Shown piece by piece: positions 9,972 to 18,994 of a stretch of DNA of 64,000 bases. The stretch lies in contig CAYXEK010000004.1 in assembly GCA_964463985.1 (NCBI GenBank), forward strand, positions 18,820-82,819, in the 5' to 3' direction. The stretch comes from an uncultured Verrucomicrobiota bacterium. Lineage in GTDB: Bacteria; Verrucomicrobiota; Kiritimatiellia; JAAZAB01. The translations under genes and the position numbers were made by a program. Numbering within the stretch: the first letter of the stretch is position 1; every line of letters starts with the position of its first letter. The notes beneath the pieces were generated by a model. That model had not been told where the DNA came from. It made no database searches and saw only the letters and a program-made list of their open reading frames with translations.

Positions 9972-10145
9972 TGGCGCCGCATCCGTTCACATTCACGGCG
10001 CATGTGAAATGATGCGTGCTTTTAGTATCAACCGGATGGTCTTTGACAGCCGCGCCCGCGTGGCGCGGACTTTCCGGAACAGAGGTTACCCCCCCCCGCT
10101 GCCATAAAAACAACAGCGGAGAACCAAGCACAGGAGCAAGAATAG

Positions 10146-11216
10146 ATGCAAGCGACGCAACATCAAACATCCAATACCAACGCGCAATCCCGCGCGGACA
10201 CCACCCGCGAGATCAAGAAACTCGCCAAATCGCTCGGCGCCGACCTGGTCGGCATCGCCTCGATGGACCGCTTTGACGGCGCGCCGATCCAGATGGACCC
10301 CCGCTACATCATGCCGGAGGCCAAGTCCTGCATCGTGGTCGGGTTCCGCGTCCTGCGCGGCTCGCTGCGCGGCATTGAAGAGGGCACATTCTTCAGCAAT
10401 TATTCCTCCATGGGCTATGGCGGCATAACTTATATCTTTATGCCGATCACCGTCATGAACCTCGCGCGCCACATTGAAGACATGGGGTACGAGGCTTTCC
10501 CGATGGGACATCAAAGCGACTGGCGCGCGATTGACAATGAAGGCCGGATGCGCGCCGGCTTCAGCAAGCCGGTGGCCCCCGGCAAGCCGGCGCCGGACAT
10601 CATGGTGCACCTGCGCCTGGCGGCCTTCGCCGCCGGCCTGGGAGAAATCGGCTGGAGCAAAATGCTGATCACGCCGGAATTCGGTCCGGCCGTGCGCGTC
10701 GGCCTGGTGTTGACCGAGTTGGAACTCGATCCCGACCCGCTTTACAGCGGCCCCAGGCTCTGCAACAAATGCATGGCCTGCGTCCGCGCCTGCCCGGGAA
10801 AGGCCATCAGCGCCGACAAAAGCATCAAGGTGACAGTAGCCGGCCAGGCGCTGGAATGGGCGGAAATAGACATGGACGCCTGCGATGTTGCCTTCCGCGG
10901 CGCCGATGAAATCAAAAATGGGCCAGGCAAAGGCTATTACATTGAAGGATTTGACAGTTTCCGTCCGAATCATGTCTCGCCGTTTTATAACGCGCCGCCC
11001 AAACTTTACAATGCCGGCAAGGCAATCGGCGGCGCCGACGGTTGCATCAGGGCCTGTCTGGCCAGCCTGGAAGCGCGCGACCTGTTGACGCATAAATTCA
11101 AACAGAAGTTCCGCCGGCGCAAACCGTGGACCGTGGACTGGTCGCATTATGAAGAAGAAATCGCCCATGCGCCATCGGGCACCATCGGCATCAACACCCG
11201 CCTGGACACGGATTAA
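10146..11216 (+). CDS. QueG / reductive-dehalogenase-like cobalamin-binding Fe-S protein
   Basis: KLAKSLGADLVGIA...P.YIMPEAKSCIV; RLAAFAAGLGEIGWSKMLITPEFGPAVR..LVLT; CNKCMACVRACP; later DAC and GCIRAC. No Tat leader. Confidence 0.8.
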   Translation: MQATQHQTSNTNAQSRADTTREIKKLAKSLGADLVGIASMDRFDGAPIQMDPRYIMPEAKSCIVVGFRVLRGSLRGIEEGTFFSNYSSMGYGGITYIFMPITVMNLARHIEDMGYEAFPMGHQSDWRAIDNEGRMRAGFSKPVAPGKPAPDIMVHLRLAAFAAGLGEIGWSKMLITPEFGPAVRVGLVLTELELDPDPLYSGPRLCNKCMACVRACPGKAISADKSIKVTVAGQALEWAEIDMDACDVAFRGADEIKNGPGKGYYIEGFDSFRPNHVSPFYNAPPKLYNAGKAIGGADGCIRACLASLEARDLLTHKFKQKFRRRKPWTVDWSHYEEEIAHAPSGTIGINTRLDTD

Positions 11217-11325
11217 ATGGAGAAAGGCACATAAGAAGAAAGGAACAAAGAGGCAGAGCCGGAAAATTCTCCGCGAAAGGACACAAGGATCGCAAAGAAA
11301 AAGAATTTCCGGCAGAACCAAATGT

Positions 11326-11529
11326 TTCTCACAAAGACACCAAGACACAAAGGGCGAACGGATTTACAGATGCTGAAGGAAAACATGTCGCTATGCGGCA
11401 GTTCCGTTAAACGGAACCCCGTTCTTGGAAACAGCACAAAGCAAAAACCGTTTTGCGATTTGCCCTGTTTCCAAGAACGGTCATGTTTTCCTGCTGGTTC
11501 TTTCTTGGTGGCTTTGTGACTTTGCGGGA
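11326..11529. repeat. third 8-bp periodic imperfect palindrome in the same gene cluster
   Basis: TTCTCACAAAGACACCAAGACACAAAG (11326-11352) versus CTTGGTGGCTTTGTGACTTTGCGGGAA (about 11504-11530). It shares TCTCACAAAG with the element at 5063. Confidence 0.7.
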
Positions 11530-11705
11530 AAATATTCCGGATTCCGAAAGTTTGCCCATTGCGCGGGCACGCGGCTTTGCCGGATTCGTGTGATTCACGG
11601 TTAGAAAATCCGGGGCAGCTTTCCCTTTTTAATATGGTTTTTGCAATCTTTTGTGGATAATTTATTCCGACTTGGGTTGCGGTAAGCGCCCGTATTGGTA
11701 AAATA

Positions 11706-13721
11706 ATGAATACAAAACTCAAAAAACATTTCGGATCGAAACCAATCGTATGGGTGGCCGCCTGGGGCATATCCAAACTGCGCAAGCGCGGCGGACAGTT
11801 TGCCGGTTCGATCAACGGCGCGGCCGTCTGGTATGATGACTGGTATGACCGGGTCATGTCGAAGGAAACCGCCGTCAAGCTGGCGGAACTGGGAGTCAAC
11901 TTGATCATCCTGCCGTTTTCCGTGGGCGGCAGCGCGCGCATGGAACAAGCGGAACGCGACGATTTCGAACGCATGACCCGTACGCTGCACAAGTGCGGCA
12001 TAATCTCGCTGCCTTACCTGCAATACCAGAACATACTGCAGGAAGATTTCACCTTCAAAGACACGGTCTGGGGGGTCAGACTCGACGGCAGCCGCAAGCA
12101 ATTCGCTTACTGGCGGCGCACGGTCTGCCAATCCTCCCCGGCATTCCGCGAATATTTCAAGGGATTGATATCCGACGCCCTGCGGCGCGGCGCCGACGGC
12201 ATCTGGATTGACAATACCCACCGTGTCCCCTGCCGGTGCGACCTGTGCATCCGGCGCTTCAAACAATGGCTATATGCTAACCGGCGCGAATTGCTGGCCG
12301 AACTCCGCCTTGAGAATTTTGACCGGATTGAAATGCCGCCATTCGCCGGCGGCGCCGATCCTATCACCCAGGCCCTGCTGGACTTTAATTGCAGGGCGAA
12401 TCTGGACATTTTGTCCGAATTTAAAAATCACATGCTGTCAATCAAGCCGGACGCCCTGTTCGCATCCAATCCCGGCATCGGCCGCGGCAGCAGCAATTAC
12501 GACCGCGGCATTGATCTGCGGCCGTTGCTGGAACTGCACGACCTGATGTATCTGGAAAACAAATTTTTTCCAAGTGTTGCCGACGGCCAGACCACCGGTA
12601 ATTTCCACGGATTCATCAGTTGCGAGGCTGCCGGCTCAATGGGCATTCCCGGCGCATGGAAACGGCATGATTTTGACGATACGGCCTCAAAAACCGCCAC
12701 CGGCATGCCGGAAACCGAGCCGGAAATCCGGCGGGTGATCTTTGAAGCCGCCGCCTGCGGCGGCGCGCCGGGCATGCTCTGGGCCATCCGCACCCGGCCG
12801 GAACACATGTGCGACAAGCCCGCCGACCTGCTGACCATGTATTTCGAGCATCCGCTGATTTATTCCGGCATGAAAAAGGCCCTGGACTTTGTCCGCTCCC
12901 TGCCGGTATTCGGCGATTCCCGCAACATCGCCAACATCGCCGTGCTGCATCACCGCGCCAGCCTGGCCTTTGACCCGCAAAACGCCTGGCCGGCCATGCA
13001 TACCGCGGAAGAGTTTTTACACAACGCCGGATTGCCTTACAACGTTTTGTATTCCGAAGATTGCGCCGCCCAAGCTGGCGGGTACAAAGCGATCATCCTT
13101 GCCGGCGTCAGCGCGATGAGCCAGCAGGACGCGGATGCCCTGAAAGGTTACGTTGAACGCGGCGGACGGCTGCTGGTCCTGGGCGATTGCGGACTTTACG
13201 ACGAACGCCGGCATGAGCGTACCGAATTCATCCTGCGGGATGTTTTGGGCGCCAGCCGCTTCCGGCGCGTCCAGGAATTTATTTTCAACCGCTACGGCGC
13301 GGGCATCTGCGCGACCCTGCCCATGGCTGGCGTATCTGATAAAATGCTCAACAACATCATGCAAGCCGAACCCAGGAATTATCTGCCTGCCTGGCATATC
13401 CGCCGTTCCGAGGTTATGCATGCGCTCGATGCGTTGCTGGGCGGCGACCGGCAAATCCGGATGACTGACATGGCGAATGTCGCGGTTACTCTGCGCCGGA
13501 CGGAGTCCGGCGCAACCGCCGCGCATTTCGTGGCATACGCTCCTTGCCCCGACGCGCAGGCATTGACCATCCAAATCCATTGCAGTTTGGCGCACGCGAA
13601 ACAAGCCGTTTGGCATACGCCGGGAGCCGGGGCGCAGCCGGCGGAACATGGCGCCGGGGCGGCGGGTTATAACTCATACCGCCTGCCGGGCTTGATTGAT
13701 TACGGCGTGTTGATCATATAG
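11706..13721 (+). CDS. second GH42-like / GHL6-like protein (architecture paralog of 8016-9971)
   Basis: CQSSPAFREY...ADGIWIDNTH..PCRCDLCIRRFKQWL, MYLEN, and AIILAGVSAMS...YVERGGRLLVLG. Confidence 0.65.
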   Translation: MNTKLKKHFGSKPIVWVAAWGISKLRKRGGQFAGSINGAAVWYDDWYDRVMSKETAVKLAELGVNLIILPFSVGGSARMEQAERDDFERMTRTLHKCGIISLPYLQYQNILQEDFTFKDTVWGVRLDGSRKQFAYWRRTVCQSSPAFREYFKGLISDALRRGADGIWIDNTHRVPCRCDLCIRRFKQWLYANRRELLAELRLENFDRIEMPPFAGGADPITQALLDFNCRANLDILSEFKNHMLSIKPDALFASNPGIGRGSSNYDRGIDLRPLLELHDLMYLENKFFPSVADGQTTGNFHGFISCEAAGSMGIPGAWKRHDFDDTASKTATGMPETEPEIRRVIFEAAACGGAPGMLWAIRTRPEHMCDKPADLLTMYFEHPLIYSGMKKALDFVRSLPVFGDSRNIANIAVLHHRASLAFDPQNAWPAMHTAEEFLHNAGLPYNVLYSEDCAAQAGGYKAIILAGVSAMSQQDADALKGYVERGGRLLVLGDCGLYDERRHERTEFILRDVLGASRFRRVQEFIFNRYGAGICATLPMAGVSDKMLNNIMQAEPRNYLPAWHIRRSEVMHALDALLGGDRQIRMTDMANVAVTLRRTESGATAAHFVAYAPCPDAQALTIQIHCSLAHAKQAVWHTPGAGAQPAEHGAGAAGYNSYRLPGLIDYGVLII

Positions 13722-13838
13722 CGCCGCGATCATCAACCGGATATTCCGGTTGAAAGCGCGGACTGCCCGCCAGGACCGGGGCTATGCGATTATAACCGGG
13801 GATTGACCTAAGCGCAACGTTTTGGCACACTGCCGGCC

Positions 13839-14744
13839 ATGAAGACCGCGGCGCCATTGATCAGCATCGGACTGGCTGCAATCATCCTGCTGGCGGGATG
13901 CGTCCGCCCAACGGATGTCATTGATGTCTCGGCCTACGACTACCGGGACACCAGGAACCTGGTGCGCATGGTGGCCGACGCCGCCCGCCTGCTTGAAGGC
14001 GAGGGCTTGCCCGCCCTCGATAGTTTACGGGAGCGCTGCTCCCCTTCCGGCGAATATTATCTTTACGTTTACGATGCGGAAGATATCTGCCTCTACCATG
14101 CGGGCATGCCGGAACTGGTCAATCAATGCCTGGCGGACATCAAGGATATTGACGGGAAATCCATTTCACGCCTGATCCGGGAAGCCCTGAACAACCCCGA
14201 TAATCCGCACGGCTGGGTACATTACACCTGGTGGGAACCGGGAAAATTTTACCCGGTGCCGAAGTCCTCCTGCCACTTCCGGATTCGCCTGCCCGACGGA
14301 CGTAAAATCTACGTCGGCGGAGGATTGAACCATCCGCACGAGGAACGCGAATTCATCCGCATTTCGGTTGACAGCGCTGCCAGGCTGATCCAGGCCCGGG
14401 GCGCGGACGCCCTGCCGGCCATCGCCGATCCGCTGGCCTCCTACAATTTCCGCGACGTGCGGGTGTTCGCGTTCCGCGAAGACGGGCGCATGCTGATTTC
14501 TCCGGTGCTGGGCGACAACCGGATCGGGCTGGATTTGCGCCGGTGCGTGGATGCCGCCGGCAACCGCCCCTTCGACCGCGCGCTGAGTTTGCTGGAAACG
14601 CAGGCCTCCGTCTGGCAGGCATTCATTGACTACAGCCGGGACGAACGCCAACCCGTGAAGAAAACTCTGTATATACGGCGCACCGTCTTGAATAATGAGC
14701 CGGTTTATCTGGGCGCCATAACGGATCTGCCCCATCCGCCTTGA
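13839..14744 (+). CDS. lipoprotein consisting of two tandem sCache_2-like domains, with no TM or signalling output
   Basis: Lipobox LAGC. Domain 1: YYLYVYD...LYH...D.DGK...GWVHYTW.EPG...PK. Domain 2: VFAFREDG...D.AGN...KK.LY. The protein ends right after domain 2. Confidence 0.75.
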   Translation: MKTAAPLISIGLAAIILLAGCVRPTDVIDVSAYDYRDTRNLVRMVADAARLLEGEGLPALDSLRERCSPSGEYYLYVYDAEDICLYHAGMPELVNQCLADIKDIDGKSISRLIREALNNPDNPHGWVHYTWWEPGKFYPVPKSSCHFRIRLPDGRKIYVGGGLNHPHEEREFIRISVDSAARLIQARGADALPAIADPLASYNFRDVRVFAFREDGRMLISPVLGDNRIGLDLRRCVDAAGNRPFDRALSLLETQASVWQAFIDYSRDERQPVKKTLYIRRTVLNNEPVYLGAITDLPHPP

Positions 14745-14831
14745 TGCCCATCGGGCGGTGTCCGTCAAAAACATTGAATCGCCAGGTTGTGATGAACGCA
14801 AGCTGAGCAAACAGGGCGCAGGCACAGGAAT

Positions 14832-16202
14832 ATGCAAACCAAATACGAATACGGCGTCAATGAAGTGCCGCCTTTCCCGCATCTGATTGCTTTATCATTG
14901 CAGCATGTGATGCTGATGTTTGTTTCGCTTTCCCTGCCCGTGATTTTCGCCGCGCAGATCAACGCCTCGCTGGAGGTTACCGCCGCGCTGGTGGCGTTTT
15001 CCATGCTGGCGGGCGGCATCGGCTCAATTATGCAAGCCGTTAAATGGCCGTTTTTGGGATCGGGCTACCTCTGTCCCAATGTTTGCGGACCGTCCTATTT
15101 CAGCCTGTCATTATCAGCAGCCTGGACCGGCGGCATGCCGCTCATGCGCGGGATGACCATCCTGGCCGGGCTGGTGGAAGTGGTCATGGCGCCCATCGTC
15201 CAGAAATTAAAACATGTCTTTCCCAACTACATCGTCGGCCTGGTGGTGGCTTTGGTGGGCGTAAGCGTGATCACGCCGTCGGTAACTTCGCTGTTCGGCC
15301 TGGCATACCGCGGCGATGCGCTGGTGGTGGCCGACGGGCTGGTGGGATTCGCCACGCTGGCGGTGATGGTGCTTTGCAACGTCTGGGGAAAGGGCCCGGT
15401 GAAAGTGTACAGCCTGCTGATCGGCATGCTGGCCGGCTGGTTGGCGGCCTTGTGCGTCTCCCCGGAAAGCCGCTTGGCCCTGCATGCCTTGCACGGCACG
15501 GCCTGGGCGGCGCTGCCAAGCATGCCGTGGAAGCTCTGGGACCTGGCGTTCGACCCGCAACTGGCGCTGCCGTTCGTGGTCATCGGGATCAGCGGCTCGC
15601 TGAAGTCGTTCGGCAACCTGCTGGCCGCCCAACACATTTCGGAGCCGGAGTTAAAACGCCCGAATTTCAAGCCGCTGCGCAACGGCCTGATGGCGGACGG
15701 GCTTTCGACCATGCTGGCCGGCGCGCTCGGCGGAATGGCGGTGGACACATCCTCCAGCAATGTCGGCCTGGCGGCCTCCACCAAGGTGTTGAGCCGCTGG
15801 CTGAGCATGGCCGCCGGTGTAATCTTCATCCTGCTGGCCTTTTCACCGCGCCTGACAATATTTTTTTCGCTGATGCCGCAGCCGGTGCTGGGCGCATCCA
15901 TTATCTTCGCCGCCTGCTTCATGATCGTCATCGGCCTGCAACAGATGTTTGAAGAGCCATGGGAAACGCGCCGGACATTCGTGGTAGGCATATCGCTGTT
16001 TCTCGGACTGAGCACGGCTTTCCAACCGGGCTTGTACGCCCGGGCGCCTCACATCATCCAGGCCTTTTTCACTGATCCGCTGCCCACGGCCACGATCCTG
16101 GCCGTGGCGCTGCACCAACTGGTAAACCTGGACCGCACCGGCGCCGGTTTGGCGCGGCGCGCCGGATCGTTGCTCCGCCGCCAGCAAGATAAACGCCGAT
16201 AA
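14832..16202 (+). CDS. NCS2 (UraA/XanQ-type) permease with atypical binding site
   Basis: SLQHV in TM1, GLMADG in TM9, signature-like TSSSNVGLAASTK, P.PVLGA; highly hydrophobic, 456 aa. Confidence 0.85.
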   Translation: MQTKYEYGVNEVPPFPHLIALSLQHVMLMFVSLSLPVIFAAQINASLEVTAALVAFSMLAGGIGSIMQAVKWPFLGSGYLCPNVCGPSYFSLSLSAAWTGGMPLMRGMTILAGLVEVVMAPIVQKLKHVFPNYIVGLVVALVGVSVITPSVTSLFGLAYRGDALVVADGLVGFATLAVMVLCNVWGKGPVKVYSLLIGMLAGWLAALCVSPESRLALHALHGTAWAALPSMPWKLWDLAFDPQLALPFVVIGISGSLKSFGNLLAAQHISEPELKRPNFKPLRNGLMADGLSTMLAGALGGMAVDTSSSNVGLAASTKVLSRWLSMAAGVIFILLAFSPRLTIFFSLMPQPVLGASIIFAACFMIVIGLQQMFEEPWETRRTFVVGISLFLGLSTAFQPGLYARAPHIIQAFFTDPLPTATILAVALHQLVNLDRTGAGLARRAGSLLRRQQDKRR

Positions 16203-16207
16203 GAAGC

Positions 16208-17077
16208 ATGAAAAAACCGCTCTATCCGCGCGCCGACGCCATGCCCGCCTGCGCCGGCTTCATCATTGATTGCCATATCCATCCCGCGCTCAATGCCCGT
16301 ACCGACTTCAACTGGTTTGGCCCGGTCGGCGGTTTTGCCCGGCAGGTCGAGGACCTGCGCCGCGCCGGCATTTCCCGGGCCTGCGGCGCGCCCGTCGCGG
16401 CGGGCGCCCCGGAAACATTTTCCGCCATCAGGCAATTGAACGACCAGGCGCTGCGGCTGCGCGACCGGTTTCCGGACTTCTACCTGCCGGGCATCCAGGT
16501 CCACCCGCATTTCCCCGCGGAATCATGCCGGGAAATCGAACGCTGCTGCGGCCGGGAAAGCGTGCGGTGGATCGGCGAACTGGTCGGCTATATGATGGGT
16601 TACGGCGACGATTACGCCTCGGATGCCGCTTTGACGGTCATGCGCGCCGCATCGGAGCACGGCGCCGTGGTCAACCTGCACTGCCATAGCCTGGAGCCCC
16701 TTGACCGCCTCTGCGCGGCCCTGCCTGACCTGAAAATCGTATTGGCCCATCCGGGCGGCGGCAAGCAGGACGTGCTGGGGCGGCTGGACAAAGTGGCCCG
16801 TTATCCGAACCTGCACCTGGACATCTCCGGGTCGGGCATTGACCGGCTGGGCATCCTCCGCCATGCAATGGACATTGCCGGCAAGGACAAGTTGCTATTT
16901 GGGACGGATTACCCCGTCAACAACCCGGCCGTTTACGTTCAAGGCGCGCTTTATGAACGCCTGACCGGCGCCGAGCGCGCGGCGTTGTTTGCCGGAAATT
17001 TTCAGCGGCTGACGGATGCGGTTGCGCCGGGGGGATGCGCAAAAAAAATGCGCCATGGTGCCGGAGGAGGGAGTTGA
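16208..17077 (+). CDS. amidohydrolase family protein (Amidohydro_2)
   Basis: IIDCHIH, IGE, NLH, VLAHPGG, NLHLDIS, LLFGTDYP and GNF.RL motifs. Confidence 0.85.
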   Translation: MKKPLYPRADAMPACAGFIIDCHIHPALNARTDFNWFGPVGGFARQVEDLRRAGISRACGAPVAAGAPETFSAIRQLNDQALRLRDRFPDFYLPGIQVHPHFPAESCREIERCCGRESVRWIGELVGYMMGYGDDYASDAALTVMRAASEHGAVVNLHCHSLEPLDRLCAALPDLKIVLAHPGGGKQDVLGRLDKVARYPNLHLDISGSGIDRLGILRHAMDIAGKDKLLFGTDYPVNNPAVYVQGALYERLTGAERAALFAGNFQRLTDAVAPGGCAKKMRHGAGGGS

Positions 17078-17141
17078 ACCCTCATGGTGTTGCCACCGCT
17101 GGATTTTGAGTCCAGTGCGTCTGCCATTTCGCCACCCCGGC
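17056..17141 (-). tRNA. tRNA-Leu (anticodon CAA)
   Basis: The reverse complement reads GCCGGGG TGGCGAAATGGCAGACGCA CTGGA CTCAAAA TCCAG, a long variable arm, GAGGG TTCAACT CCCTC, CTCCGGC ACCA. The acceptor stem pairs and CCA is encoded. Confidence 0.97.
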
Positions 17142-17164
17142 GGATTGCGTCAAAACTGGGGGTT

Positions 17165-17193
17165 AAGCTATACCAAAAAACCTGTGGTTACAA
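17165..17193 (-). promoter_or_regulatory. putative promoter of tRNA-Leu
   Basis: Minus strand TTGTAA, 17 bp, TAGCTT, about 24 bp upstream of the tRNA 5' end. Confidence 0.5.
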
Positions 17194-17217
17194 GCAGAAA
17201 GTTGCCCCGGTCGGGCT

Positions 17218-17588
17218 GGGGGCGCACCTGCGATTAGGTGCAATCAAGCCGGCACAGGCAACACGCTTTCGTTGCTTTCTCAAAGTCTTCTGCCGCGAAG
17301 TGGCTTTGGAGTGCGGCGGCTTGACGCCGCTTTGAAAAGACCGGTCACGATGCAGCCGTCTTCTTTATGCCATCAAGCCGGGTAGCATCCCGCAGGATAC
17401 TCAGACCAGACTGAAGGCTGTAGACTATAGCGGGGTTTAACCTGCAGCCTACAGTCTAATAACCTGCAGCCTTGGCGTTCCTTATGGGACACCTGTGAAG
17501 CCGGGTGATTGTATATAATCCTTGTTGTATCTCCATGCCGCTTGGCGCGCGCCATGCGAAAGCGGCGTCAAGCCGCCGCACTCCAAAG
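17218..17588. repeat. REP/BIME-like composite element, copy A
   Basis: A perfect 30-bp inverted pair: CTTTGGAGTGCGGCGGCTTGACGCCGCTTT (17304-17333) and its reverse complement (17559-17588). The ~85-bp left flank is shared with 21928-22009. Confidence 0.85.
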
Positions 17589-17666
17589 CGGCTTCGCCAC
17601 GAAAGAGCGGCGGCAATCCCCTGGGACTGACTTGCGACCGCCGGCGGCATTTTGCCGGCAATATGC

Positions 17667-17696
17667 TTGACTAACGCCGCGGCTACCGGTTAGTAT
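17667..17696 (+). promoter_or_regulatory. putative sigma70 promoter for the small-peptide/rnd unit
   Basis: TTGACT (17667-17672), 18 bp, TAGTAT (17691-17696). Confidence 0.5.
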
Positions 17697-17753
17697 AAAC
17701 GCCTGTAAACCAGCGCCGCCATTATGCGGCGGAAGCAGCCGTGAACCCGCATT

Positions 17754-17843
17754 ATGTTCAACAACAACCTGATACTGATATTTATCCCCGTGGTGCTGGC
17801 CATCGCCCTGTGGGCGGCATACCATTTTCTGGAACGGAAATGA
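17754..17843 (+). CDS. 29-aa single-TM small protein, translationally coupled to rnd
   Basis: MFNNNLILIFIPVVLAIALWAAYHFLERK*. Its TGA overlaps the rnd ATG (ATGA at 17840-17843). It is below the ORF-track cut-off. Confidence 0.55.
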   Translation: MFNNNLILIFIPVVLAIALWAAYHFLERK

Positions 17844-18994
17844 CCGCGTCCGCCACTCCTTACGAATTGATCCGGTCTCCCGAGCAACTGCGCCTGGCTT
17901 TGCCCCTGCTGGAATCCGCGCCCTCCCTGGCGTTGGATATGGAGATGGAAAACCATTGCCATCTGTACGGCCTGCACATTGCCTTGATCCAACTATCCAC
18001 GCCGGACAACCGGCACTACATCATTGATCCGCTTTCCGGAATCGAACTGCAGCCACTCGGCGCAATTTTCAGCGATCCGGAGCGCCAGTTGATTCTGCAT
18101 GACGCCGATTTCGACCGCCGGGCGGCGCACCAGGTTTACGGCTGGAAACTGCATGGAGTGTTCGACACCAAGATCGCGGCGCAACTGTGCGGGCACCGCA
18201 AATTCGGACTGGGCAATTTGCTGTCGGAATATTTTAACGTCTCCACCAACAAGCGCTTTCAAACCATGAACTGGATGAAGCGGCCCATCTCCGAGGAAGC
18301 CCTGGCTTACGCGGCCGGAGACACATCGCACCTGCACGCCTTGCGCGATAAATTGTCGGCGCGCCTGGCGGAACTGGGGCGCGCTGCCTGGGCGGAAGAG
18401 GAGTTTGACTTCGCGGAACGCCAGGAAATGCGGCTGCCCGCCTCGCCCGCGCATCACCGCATGAAACGCAGCGCGCTGCTTACTCCGCGGCAACTGGCCG
18501 TGCTGGGAGCCCTCTCGGCATTCCGCGACAAACTGGCGCGCCAGGTCAACCGGCCGCTGCATTTCATCATGCGCAATGAAATCCTGCTGGAACTGGCGGC
18601 GCGGCCGCAACTTGACCTGGAATACCTGCGCGGATTGCGCGGCGTGCATCCGATCCTGCGCCAGTCCCATAACCTGGAGAAGCTGCTGGCGGCCTGGCGC
18701 GCCGGACAACAGGCGCGGGAGGAACAGCATCCCGCCCGGGCGCGCCGGCCGCGTTCGGCCCCGAACTACAAAACCCGGTTGAAAGACATGCAGCTTTGGC
18801 GCGCGGCCCTGGCGGAAAAATTCGACCTGGAGCCTTATCTGCTGCTGGATAATGACGTGCTTGGTTGGTGCGCAAATCATCCCCGGCAGGCTCCGACGCC
18901 GGAAATCGCCGCGCTCGTGCGCCGCTGGCAACGCGCGGTCACCTGGCCCGGATTCGCGGAAAAATTCGAGATTGCGTCGCCCCTGCCGGGCTAA
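17840..18994 (+). CDS. rnd: ribonuclease D (DEDDy 3'-5' exonuclease + HRDC)
   Basis: ALDMEME, LIQLS, LHDADFD, FDTKIAAQL, YAAGDT and the HRDC motif RD.LAR..NRP..FIM. Start moved to ATG 17840. Confidence 0.85.
   Translation: MTASATPYELIRSPEQLRLALPLLESAPSLALDMEMENHCHLYGLHIALIQLSTPDNRHYIIDPLSGIELQPLGAIFSDPERQLILHDADFDRRAAHQVYGWKLHGVFDTKIAAQLCGHRKFGLGNLLSEYFNVSTNKRFQTMNWMKRPISEEALAYAAGDTSHLHALRDKLSARLAELGRAAWAEEEFDFAERQEMRLPASPAHHRMKRSALLTPRQLAVLGALSAFRDKLARQVNRPLHFIMRNEILLELAARPQLDLEYLRGLRGVHPILRQSHNLEKLLAAWRAGQQAREEQHPARARRPRSAPNYKTRLKDMQLWRAALAEKFDLEPYLLLDNDVLGWCANHPRQAPTPEIAALVRRWQRAVTWPGFAEKFEIASPLPG

Follow-up and report, generated by a model that had tools for sequence, protein, structure and literature searches.

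Before the TAXI-GltS system was proposed in 2025, the tripartite ATP-independent periplasmic (TRAP) and tripartite tricarboxylate transporter (TTT) families were the only secondary carriers known to work with a soluble binding protein, and all of these carriers are of the elevator type (PMC12344293). The authors of that proposal asked for further classes, to test whether the elevator mechanism is what permits the use of a binding protein (PMC12344293). Here we describe a gene pair that is a candidate for such a class. It lies in a stretch of 64,000 nucleotides (nt) from an uncultured Kiritimatiellia bacterium (contig CAYXEK010000004.1), hereafter the window, and encodes a lipoprotein built of Cache domains followed by a carrier of the NCS2/NAT fold. 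An earlier note on this DNA, made from the sequence alone, had proposed that the lipoprotein captures an anionic solute for the permease and that the amidohydrolase encoded next processes it. The three open reading frames (ORFs), their gaps and their domain assignments are all as that note described them, as judged from the ORF list and from Pfam (Table 1); the ORFs are co-oriented, and 5 nt separate the carrier gene from the amidohydrolase gene. Our results suggest that the pair is an undescribed binding-protein-assisted (or binding-protein-gated) secondary carrier, probably for a small carboxylate, and they assign the amidohydrolase to a different operon.

As in TRAP (DctPQM), TTT (TctABC) and TAXI-GltS, the gene of the putative binding protein adjoins, and is co-oriented with, the gene of an elevator-type carrier, organic acids are the likely substrates, and the evidence is of the type on which TAXI-GltS was proposed, namely gene linkage and coupling (PMC12344293). 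By contrast, the parts are different: the putative binding protein has a Cache/PAS-like fold rather than that of DctP, TAXI or TctC (class II periplasmic binding protein), the 7+7 architecture of the carrier is that of NCS2/SLC23 rather than of DctM, TctA or GltS, and the small DctQ/TctB subunit of TRAP and TTT is lacking. Since the TRAP and TTT families gave no Pfam match in the three window proteins or in conserved neighbours, the pair is not a member of TRAP, TTT or TAXI-GltS, and would work like them. NCS2 carriers had been noted as not known to use binding proteins, and the literature agrees (PMC12344293); full-text searching turned up neither a paper in which Cache is combined with NCS2 or Xan_ur_permease nor one on a Cache-type binding protein for a secondary carrier.

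The linkage of the two genes was assessed in both directions. A scan of one genome per GTDB species, seeded with the Cache family alignment, returned 80 loci, and a carrier homologue (58-93% identical) was found directly downstream, on the same strand and after a gap of 13-227 nt, in 78/78 testable loci; in the two untestable ones the contig stops at the Cache stop codon. Reciprocally, a carrier-seeded scan of metagenomes found the Cache gene directly upstream in 79/79 testable loci, the single exception having 54 nt of upstream sequence only. The loci span Kiritimatiellia, Verrucomicrobiota, Lentisphaera, Cloacimonadota, Chlorobi (16 loci) and Desulfobacterota/Syntrophales (~29 loci), with further ones in Bacteroidales, Omnitrophota, Fermentibacterales, Sumerlaeota, Caldisericota, Muiribacteriota and others. 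The feature by which the functional class is recognised, a binding-protein gene strictly linked to and co-oriented with a carrier gene, is thus present in every locus of both sets (78/78 and 79/79). The co-occurrence of Cache-only proteins with this NCS2 clade, on which the earlier note had made its proposal depend, is strongly positive both ways across more than 10 phyla. The two proteins also diverge in step (r=0.84 for pairwise divergence, 132 non-redundant pairs). Moreover, the association extends to other 50%-identity clusters, four Cache proteins of which match the family profile with 187-305 bits and have a Xan_ur_permease gene with the same motifs downstream. A more distant double-Cache lipoprotein (160 bits; L094/L095, 5001-8489) is followed by an FGGY sugar kinase gene and by no carrier, indicating that the wider double-Cache superfamily has other partners; an Amidohydro_2 gene and a sulfatase gene lie near this distant gene.

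Beyond the two genes, the neighbourhood is not conserved. When 700 flanking ORFs were clustered all-against-all and the 121 immediately flanking genes were annotated with Pfam, no further partner family emerged, the largest being present at 7 loci, and for this reason the substrate cannot be read from the genomic context. A kinase or chemoreceptor as the true partner of the Cache protein, the case that the earlier note had named as fatal to its proposal together with loss of the Cache gene from beside the permease, is not what the neighbourhoods show: PAS or response-regulator genes occupy 3/121 flanking positions only, and a kinase or chemoreceptor was rejected as a conserved partner. We conclude that the pair is an obligate, co-inherited and autonomous two-gene unit of anaerobic diderm bacteria in more than 10 phyla, and that it moves as one unit among unrelated genomic contexts. 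That the Cache protein and the carrier are functional partners, whatever the mechanism, we regard as highly probable.

Several variants of the arrangement were observed. In Chlorobiaceae contigs (L077, 7035-12248; L070, 81-3904), a single Cache gene is preceded by one or two additional carrier paralogues in tandem, which are 50-53% identical and share the Lys/Ser motifs. Isolate genomes of Prosthecochloris (L003/L004 and L021) are among those with the pair. One pair (L080) sits on a 3.3-kb contig, JAUSPR010000220, binned as a Thermoplasmata archaeon, which may reflect mis-binning or transfer into an archaeon. The fusion of a Cache-only protein to a carrier, which the earlier note had suggested looking for, was not found among the best 120 carrier matches, nor when Pfam was applied to the 10 longest among the best 150 representatives from the Cache profile; one 759-aa relative (aa, amino acids; P0358) carries its Cache region at the C-terminus, behind 476 N-terminal aa without a Pfam match. 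TAXI-GltS, by contrast, has natural fusions.

The first gene of the pair encodes a protein that matches sCache_2 (PF17200; 38.8 bits against a cut-off of 25, E=1.1e-9) and dCache_2 (33.1 bits against 26.5, E=4.2e-8). An AlphaFold2 (AF2) model computed from a 32-sequence alignment, with a predicted local distance difference test (pLDDT) of 85 and a predicted template-modelling score (pTM) of 0.81, consists of a signal helix and two modules, each a long helix plus a PAS-like sheet, and nothing further. The protein has the elements that define the sCache_2 fold, i.e. a long N-terminal helix, a PAS-like five-stranded sheet and an extracytoplasmic location. Foldseek matched the model to sCache_2 domains and to tandem PAS/dCache sensors, and hhalign recognised the two modules as homologues (probability 97.5%, E=7.5e-12). 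Neither Pfam nor the AF2 model revealed a second transmembrane (TM) helix or an output domain within the 301 aa, and the protein lacks the flanking TM helices and the cytoplasmic MCP, histidine kinase or cyclase output that characterise Cache receptors. The original description of a lipoprotein of only two sCache_2-like domains, with no TM, kinase or MCP output, therefore stands. The lipobox Cys21 is kept in 130/132 homologues, the remaining 2 being alignment gaps, and the protein is exported and lipid-anchored, as read from its signal peptide and lipobox. The best-conserved stretch of the protein is the N-terminal helix of domain 2. The family comprises 361 clusters of stand-alone proteins of ~300 aa, the closest 120 of which are 47-87% identical to the window protein, 288-344 aa long and made of Cache domains only. 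Among wider relatives, the double-Cache module is fused to ABC-type binding-protein domains, Bmp (Bmp/PnrA-like) in P0304 and ABC_sub_bind in P0282, from which it follows that the module serves in periplasmic solute-binding settings. Other relatives are giants with 7-13 Cache-like stretches (P0247, 2099 aa; P0324, 2142 aa). At E<=1e-30, the double-Cache superfamily amounts to 95 representative clusters. One source labels a Cache homologue a "calcium:proton antiporter".

What this protein might bind can be predicted from its first domain. With the family profile, four solved sCache_2 domains were matched, each of them by domain 1 (E=2e-8 to 6e-7). Of the known structures, Adeh_3718 (4K08) was crystallised with acetate, the Vibrio parahaemolyticus domain (4EXO/2QHK) with pyruvate and PscD (5G4Y/5G4Z) with propionate; PscD binds the carboxylate through Tyr90, His103, Tyr143 and Lys156, sandwiching it between Trp92 and Trp145 (PMC5062169). 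Tyr74, Tyr76, His87, Tyr129, Trp131 and Lys142 of the lipoprotein align, in this order, with PscD Tyr90, Trp92, His103, Tyr143, Trp145 and Lys156, and Tyr78 aligns with the Vibrio tyrosine that touches the 2-oxo group of pyruvate. Among 132 non-redundant homologues, His87 and Lys142 are invariant (132/132 each), and Trp131 (131/132), Tyr76 (130/132), Tyr74 and Tyr78 (129/132 each) and Tyr129 (126/132, with Phe in the other 6) nearly so. Domain 1 hence displays the short-chain-carboxylate motif of sCache_2 domains, Tyr/aromatic/His/Tyr(Phe)/aromatic/Lys. The histidine is the mark of pyruvate- and acetate-type pockets, its place being taken by Leu in lactate sensors (2025 study, PMC12415202). 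The Tyr/His/Tyr/Lys set that the earlier note had named in domain 1 thus corresponds to the carboxylate-binding residues of 4K08, 4EXO and PscD and is conserved in 126-132 of the 132 homologues. Likewise, domain 2 does lack the His, as had been noted, hhalign placing Ser221 at that position. Its four hydrogen-bonding positions are occupied by Asp206, Ser221, Phe262 and Lys275, and Ala replaces Trp131, which argues that the predicted pocket of domain 2 is not of the carboxylate type. Taken together, these comparisons indicate that domain 1 keeps every sCache_2 residue needed for the carboxylate of acetate, propionate or pyruvate, and the predicted ligand is a small carboxylate or 2-oxo acid. 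Domain 1 therefore shares its fold, its Tyr/His/Tyr/Lys set and its aromatic sandwich with the sCache_2 domains of chemoreceptors (PscD, Adeh_3718, V. parahaemolyticus 4EXO, McpP). Unlike these, the lipoprotein has no TM2 and no HAMP, MCP, kinase or cyclase domain, is lipid-anchored, carries a second, pocket-degenerate Cache module, and is always encoded with a carrier.

The carrier itself departs from the characterised members of its superfamily. It matches Xan_ur_permease (PF00860) with 180 bits against a cut-off of 27 (E=7e-53) and passes the NCBIfam NCS2_1 model, and its scores lie under the curated cut-offs of TIGR00801 (ncs2; 177.6 versus 291.8) and of pbuX TIGR03173 (230.7 versus 414.15). 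UraA, SVCT1 and UapA are the best Foldseek matches of its AF2 model (pLDDT 83, pTM 0.85), with TM-scores of 0.6-0.74, and the SLC26/SLC4 anion carriers, which have this fold too, come next; in the model, the 14-TM, 7+7 core/gate fold of UraA/UapA is kept. The NAT signature in TM10 reads [Q/E/P]-N-x-G-x-x-x-x-T-[R/K/G], and the carrier segment starting at Ser309, S-N-V-G-L-A-A-S-T-K, fits it at all positions but the first. The 14-TM core/gate fold and the N-x-G-x-x-x-x-T-K part of the signature are hence shared with canonical NAT/NCS2 proteins (UraA, UapA, XanQ, SVCT1). By contrast, the clade, which is unusually well conserved (58-93% identical across phyla, with a mean column identity of 72%), is set apart by its obligate periplasmic partner gene, by the motifs GSGYLCPNVCGPSY and FFTDPLPT, and by its substrate site. 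Alignment to 3QE7, 8OMZ and 5I6C places Lys258 where UraA has Glu241 and UapA has Glu356, Asn262 where these have His245 and Asp360, and Ser309 where they have Glu290 and Gln408. UraA requires Glu241 and Glu290 to bind uracil; its candidate residues for coupling to protons are Glu241 and His245, and its core domain undergoes an elevator-like motion (PMC5539350). Lys258, Asn262, Asp305 and Ser309 are each present in 132/132 carriers, and the same four residues occur in 42-53%-identical carriers that lie beside divergent Cache proteins or represent extra paralogues. With Lys258 and Ser309, the carrier has neither the TM8 Glu nor the TM10 Glu/Gln of nucleobase:cation symporters. These three replacements, along with the scores below the TIGR00801 and pbuX cut-offs, substantiate the earlier description of the permease as atypical.

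Predicted outward-facing loops of the carrier are conserved as well. In a topology derived from hydropathy and the positive-inside rule, positions conserved to at least 97% make up 55% of loop 93-103 and 47% of loop 399-417, as against 0-33% of the cytoplasmic loops, and the two predicted periplasmic loops are as invariant as the substrate site. Loop 399-417 diverges in the same distant pairs as the Cache C-terminal motif GAITDLPxPP. We infer that the positive charge in the substrate site and the conserved outward loops fit an anion carrier with a periplasmic partner.

These observations can be assembled into a mechanism, to which we give a probability of about 0.5. In the periplasm, the lipoprotein would capture a small monocarboxylate or a 2-oxo acid; the leading candidates are pyruvate, acetate or a propionate-like acid, and aryl-acetic or aryl-pyruvic acids are possible in some lineages. 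The loaded lipoprotein would dock on the conserved periplasmic loops of the carrier and pass the anion to the Lys258 site, from which the core domain would take it through the membrane in the elevator motion typical of this fold. The anionic solute of the earlier proposal fits both the intact carboxylate pocket of domain 1 and the invariant Lys in the carrier substrate site. The core of that proposal, joint action of the Cache lipoprotein and this NCS2 clade on an anion, has strong backing from the co-occurrence data and the binding-site features. More tentatively still, the event may be put as the hand-over of a carboxylate from a Cache lipoprotein to an SLC23/NCS2-fold elevator carrier whose proton-coupling Glu is now a Lys. 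Where same-strand metabolic genes follow the pair, they concern the activation or conversion of carboxylic acids: a FadD-like acyl-CoA ligase gene comes immediately after the pair at 7 Chlorobium-type loci, the downstream genes of L176 are those for IorA-IorB, a PaaK-like ligase, an ACT protein and an aminotransferase, 2-oxoacid:ferredoxin oxidoreductase genes adjoin the pair in L002 and L091/L092, and ADP-forming acetyl-CoA-synthetase-like genes lie within three genes of it at 4 loci. These contexts lend weak support to a carboxylate substrate.

Several points weigh against delivery by the lipoprotein. The carboxylate contexts concern a minority of loci and may be due to chance in anaerobes rich in such enzymes, most loci offering no metabolic hint. 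We know of no Cache domain that releases its ligand to a partner, and Cache domains are without the Venus-flytrap geometry that is typical of classical binding proteins. Whether the lipoprotein is sorted to the inner or the outer membrane is not predictable in these phyla, natural fusions of binding protein and carrier were not found in the homologues checked, and the transported substrate could differ from the Cache ligand.

The last point leads to the main alternative, in which the lipoprotein is an auxiliary or regulatory subunit, sensing a periplasmic carboxylate, binding the carrier loops and switching or stabilising the carrier, whose solute may then differ from the ligand. A parallel would be the alpha2-delta subunit of calcium channels, likewise lipid-anchored and with Cache domains. 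Strict pairing applies equally to such a subunit, Cache domains are sensors in every characterised case, and it is in keeping with the failure to find fusion proteins among the homologues checked. The conserved loops belong to the core (3-4) and gate (13-14) domains, and a partner bound there could clamp the elevator movement. The short gaps between the genes, mostly 13-50 nt, suggest co-expression and do not discriminate between delivery and regulation. What speaks against regulation is that the substrate site of the carrier has shifted towards an anion in parallel with the carboxylate pocket of its partner, which is most simply explained if both proteins handle the same molecule. We consequently consider a purely regulatory subunit rather unlikely, and retain delivery of a carboxylate as the preferred explanation.

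It is improbable that the carrier is an ordinary permease for nucleobases (xanthine/uracil) whose Cache partner binds a purine or pyrimidine. This reading is suggested by the labels "xanthine permease" and "purine/pyrimidine permease" that sources attach to homologues, by the match to the NCBIfam NCS2_1 model, and by the ability of some dCache_1 domains to bind purines or uracil. However, the residues that serve uracil and protons in UraA, and their UapA counterparts, are all replaced, with Lys for the TM8 Glu in 132/132 carriers, neither the pbuX nor the ncs2 cut-off is reached, and the Cache module is an sCache_2 with a carboxylate motif, not a dCache_1 of the purine/uracil type. In addition, clustering of flanking ORFs and Pfam found no salvage genes nearby, and Rfam, run on 15 loci at the gathering threshold and on window 11000-18000 at an E-value threshold, found neither a purine or other riboswitch nor a different RNA ahead of the Cache gene. 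The sole Rfam matches were a transfer RNA gene in the window and a fluoride riboswitch in the Omnitrophota locus L072 (3637-3707, +; 45 bits, cut-off 34), which stands ahead of a gene of the Na+/H+-exchanger family just upstream of the pair. Ion-transport genes were seen near the pair elsewhere too: in L093 (3875-5011), an Na_H_Exchanger gene overlaps the Cache start codon, and Kef/Trk/Mrp genes lie nearby in Chlorobi loci.

Very improbable is the original three-gene version, in which the Cache protein, the carrier and the amidohydrolase form one catabolic unit and the enzyme processes the imported solute. The 5-nt same-strand gap, found in the window and in L001/L006, is in its favour, as is the fact that Amidohydro_2 enzymes act on carboxylates and lactones. 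However, the amidohydrolase adjoins the pair only in the window and in this 87%-identical Kiritimatiellia relative, and no homologue of it was found beside the pair in the other 157 loci. A second Kiritimatiellia genome (L180) has orthologues of the upstream window cluster, i.e. of the GH42M-like protein (85%), the Fe-S protein (83%) and the 671-aa GH-like protein (77%), and its amidohydrolase orthologue (77%) begins 14 nt after the 671-aa gene, neither a Cache gene nor a carrier being interposed; in L180, moreover, a rhamnosidase gene precedes the cluster and a URO-D-like gene lies between the GH42M-like and Fe-S genes. In Lentisphaeria (L182/L183), the amidohydrolase gene follows a URO-D-like gene in a sugar cluster, so that it travels with URO-D and sugar genes there. 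Given its absence beside the pair in 157 loci and the gene order of L180, the amidohydrolase belongs to the upstream glycan-type (GH-like/Fe-S) operon and not to the Cache-carrier module, and the processing of an imported solute by this enzyme, found next to the pair in one Kiritimatiellia lineage only, is contradicted as a general proposition. By the L180 order, the two-gene cassette (Table 1) was inserted ahead of the amidohydrolase gene in the lineage of the window; no meaningful flanking repeats were detected around it. Finally, chance or purely syntenic adjacency of the Cache and carrier genes can be dismissed, as 157/157 testable loci are paired, in variable contexts, in more than 10 phyla and in both search directions.

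Table 1 Features of the Cache-carrier locus in the window (positions in the 64,000-nt stretch)
Feature	Position	Strand	Details
Cache lipoprotein gene	13839-14744	+	301 aa; Pfam sCache_2 + dCache_2
Signal peptide and lipobox L-A-G-C	13839-13901	+	predicted lipidated Cys21, codon 13899-13901 (translation LLAGCVRP)
Cache domain 1, aa 36-165	13944-14333	+	sCache_2 module; predicted pocket Tyr74, Tyr76, Tyr78, His87, Tyr129, Trp131, Lys142
Cache domain 2, aa 166-301	14334-14741	+	duplicated module, degenerate pocket
Spacer between Cache and carrier genes	14745-14831	+	87 nt; 13-50 nt in most relatives
NCS2/NAT-fold carrier gene, distinct clade	14832-16202	+	456 aa; Pfam Xan_ur_permease
Predicted periplasmic loop TM3-TM4, aa 93-103 (AAWxGGxPL)	15108-15140	+	candidate docking surface
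Carrier TM8 motif K258-S-F-G-N262	15603-15617	+	alignment to 3QE7, 8OMZ, 5I6C; translation check
Carrier TM10 motif D305-T-S-S-S309	15744-15758	+	alignment to UraA/UapA; translation check
Predicted periplasmic loop TM13-TM14, aa 399-417 (LYARAPxxIQxFFTDPLP)	16026-16082	+	candidate docking surface
Two-gene cassette (Cache lipoprotein, carrier and own upstream spacer)	13722-16207	+	between the 671-aa GH-like gene and the amidohydrolase; insertion
Amidohydrolase ORF	16208-17077	+	289 aa; Pfam Amidohydro_2, E=1.5e-29

Other features of the locus and its surroundings were recorded. A promoter scan found no sigma-70-like promoter, and terminator-like matches were at background level. The transfer RNA gene is a tRNA-Leu (anticodon CAA; window 17056-17141, -), and the amidohydrolase ORF overlaps it with its final 22 nt. 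At a length of ~256-266 aa, homologues of this enzyme cover 87% of the 289-aa ORF, so that its annotated ends may be too long; a sequence search of the PDB gave no match for it at E<=0.01. Within the upstream cluster, window 10146-11216 (+) encodes a protein of 356 aa that contains a 4Fe-4S motif and is weakly similar to models of reductive dehalogenases and epoxyqueuosine reductases (TIGR02486, E=1e-16, far under the cut-off), which is accompanied by two paralogous GH42-like/GHL10-like proteins, an unusual combination. In L001 (3580-4614) and L180 (2370-3404), a URO-D-like gene lies between the GH42M-like gene and the RDH/QueG-like Fe-S gene. No URO-D homologue was found in the 64 kb of the window, where a 174-nt spacer (9972-10145) is all that occupies this place. 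The closest relative of the window is a metagenome-assembled genome from an anaerobic bioreactor, with 87-93% protein identity.

Partial parallels to the pair exist outside the binding-protein-dependent carriers. The alpha2-delta subunits of voltage-gated calcium channels are lipid-anchored extracellular Cache proteins without a signalling output, which bind small ligands bearing a carboxylate (amino acids, gabapentin); as the lipoprotein described here would, they associate with a membrane transport protein. They differ in being eukaryotic, in combining dCache with VWA domains, in having an ion channel as partner and in acting in regulation and trafficking rather than delivery, and common descent of the two pairings is not evidenced. 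In mycobacteria, LprG-Rv1410c (P55) is a two-gene operon of a ligand-binding lipoprotein and an MFS secondary transporter, which act jointly. It differs from the present pair in both folds, in handling lipids and in the direction of transport, which is export. In the DcuS-DctA/DcuB and CitA-type systems, a periplasmic carboxylate-binding domain of the Cache/PDC type works with a carboxylate carrier. There, the Cache domain is part of a histidine kinase and the carrier is a co-sensor, whereas the present lipoprotein contains no kinase and has none conserved in its neighbourhood.

If the proposed mechanism is right, the pair would be a binding-protein-dependent secondary transporter made from parts not previously used in that way, and it would be the first to give a stand-alone Cache protein of bacteria a part in transport. 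The emerging rule that only elevator-type carriers partner with binding proteins would be extended and could be tested on a third elevator fold (SLC4/23/26), here combined with a binding protein drawn from the Cache sensor superfamily. Public records, where they name the carrier clade, now call it "xanthine" or "purine/pyrimidine permease"; it would become a defined non-nucleobase clade. For green sulfur bacteria, syntrophs, Cloacimonadota and bacteria of the Planctomycetota-Verrucomicrobiota-Chlamydiota (PVC) group, the pair may reveal how acids of the pyruvate, acetate or propionate type are taken up.

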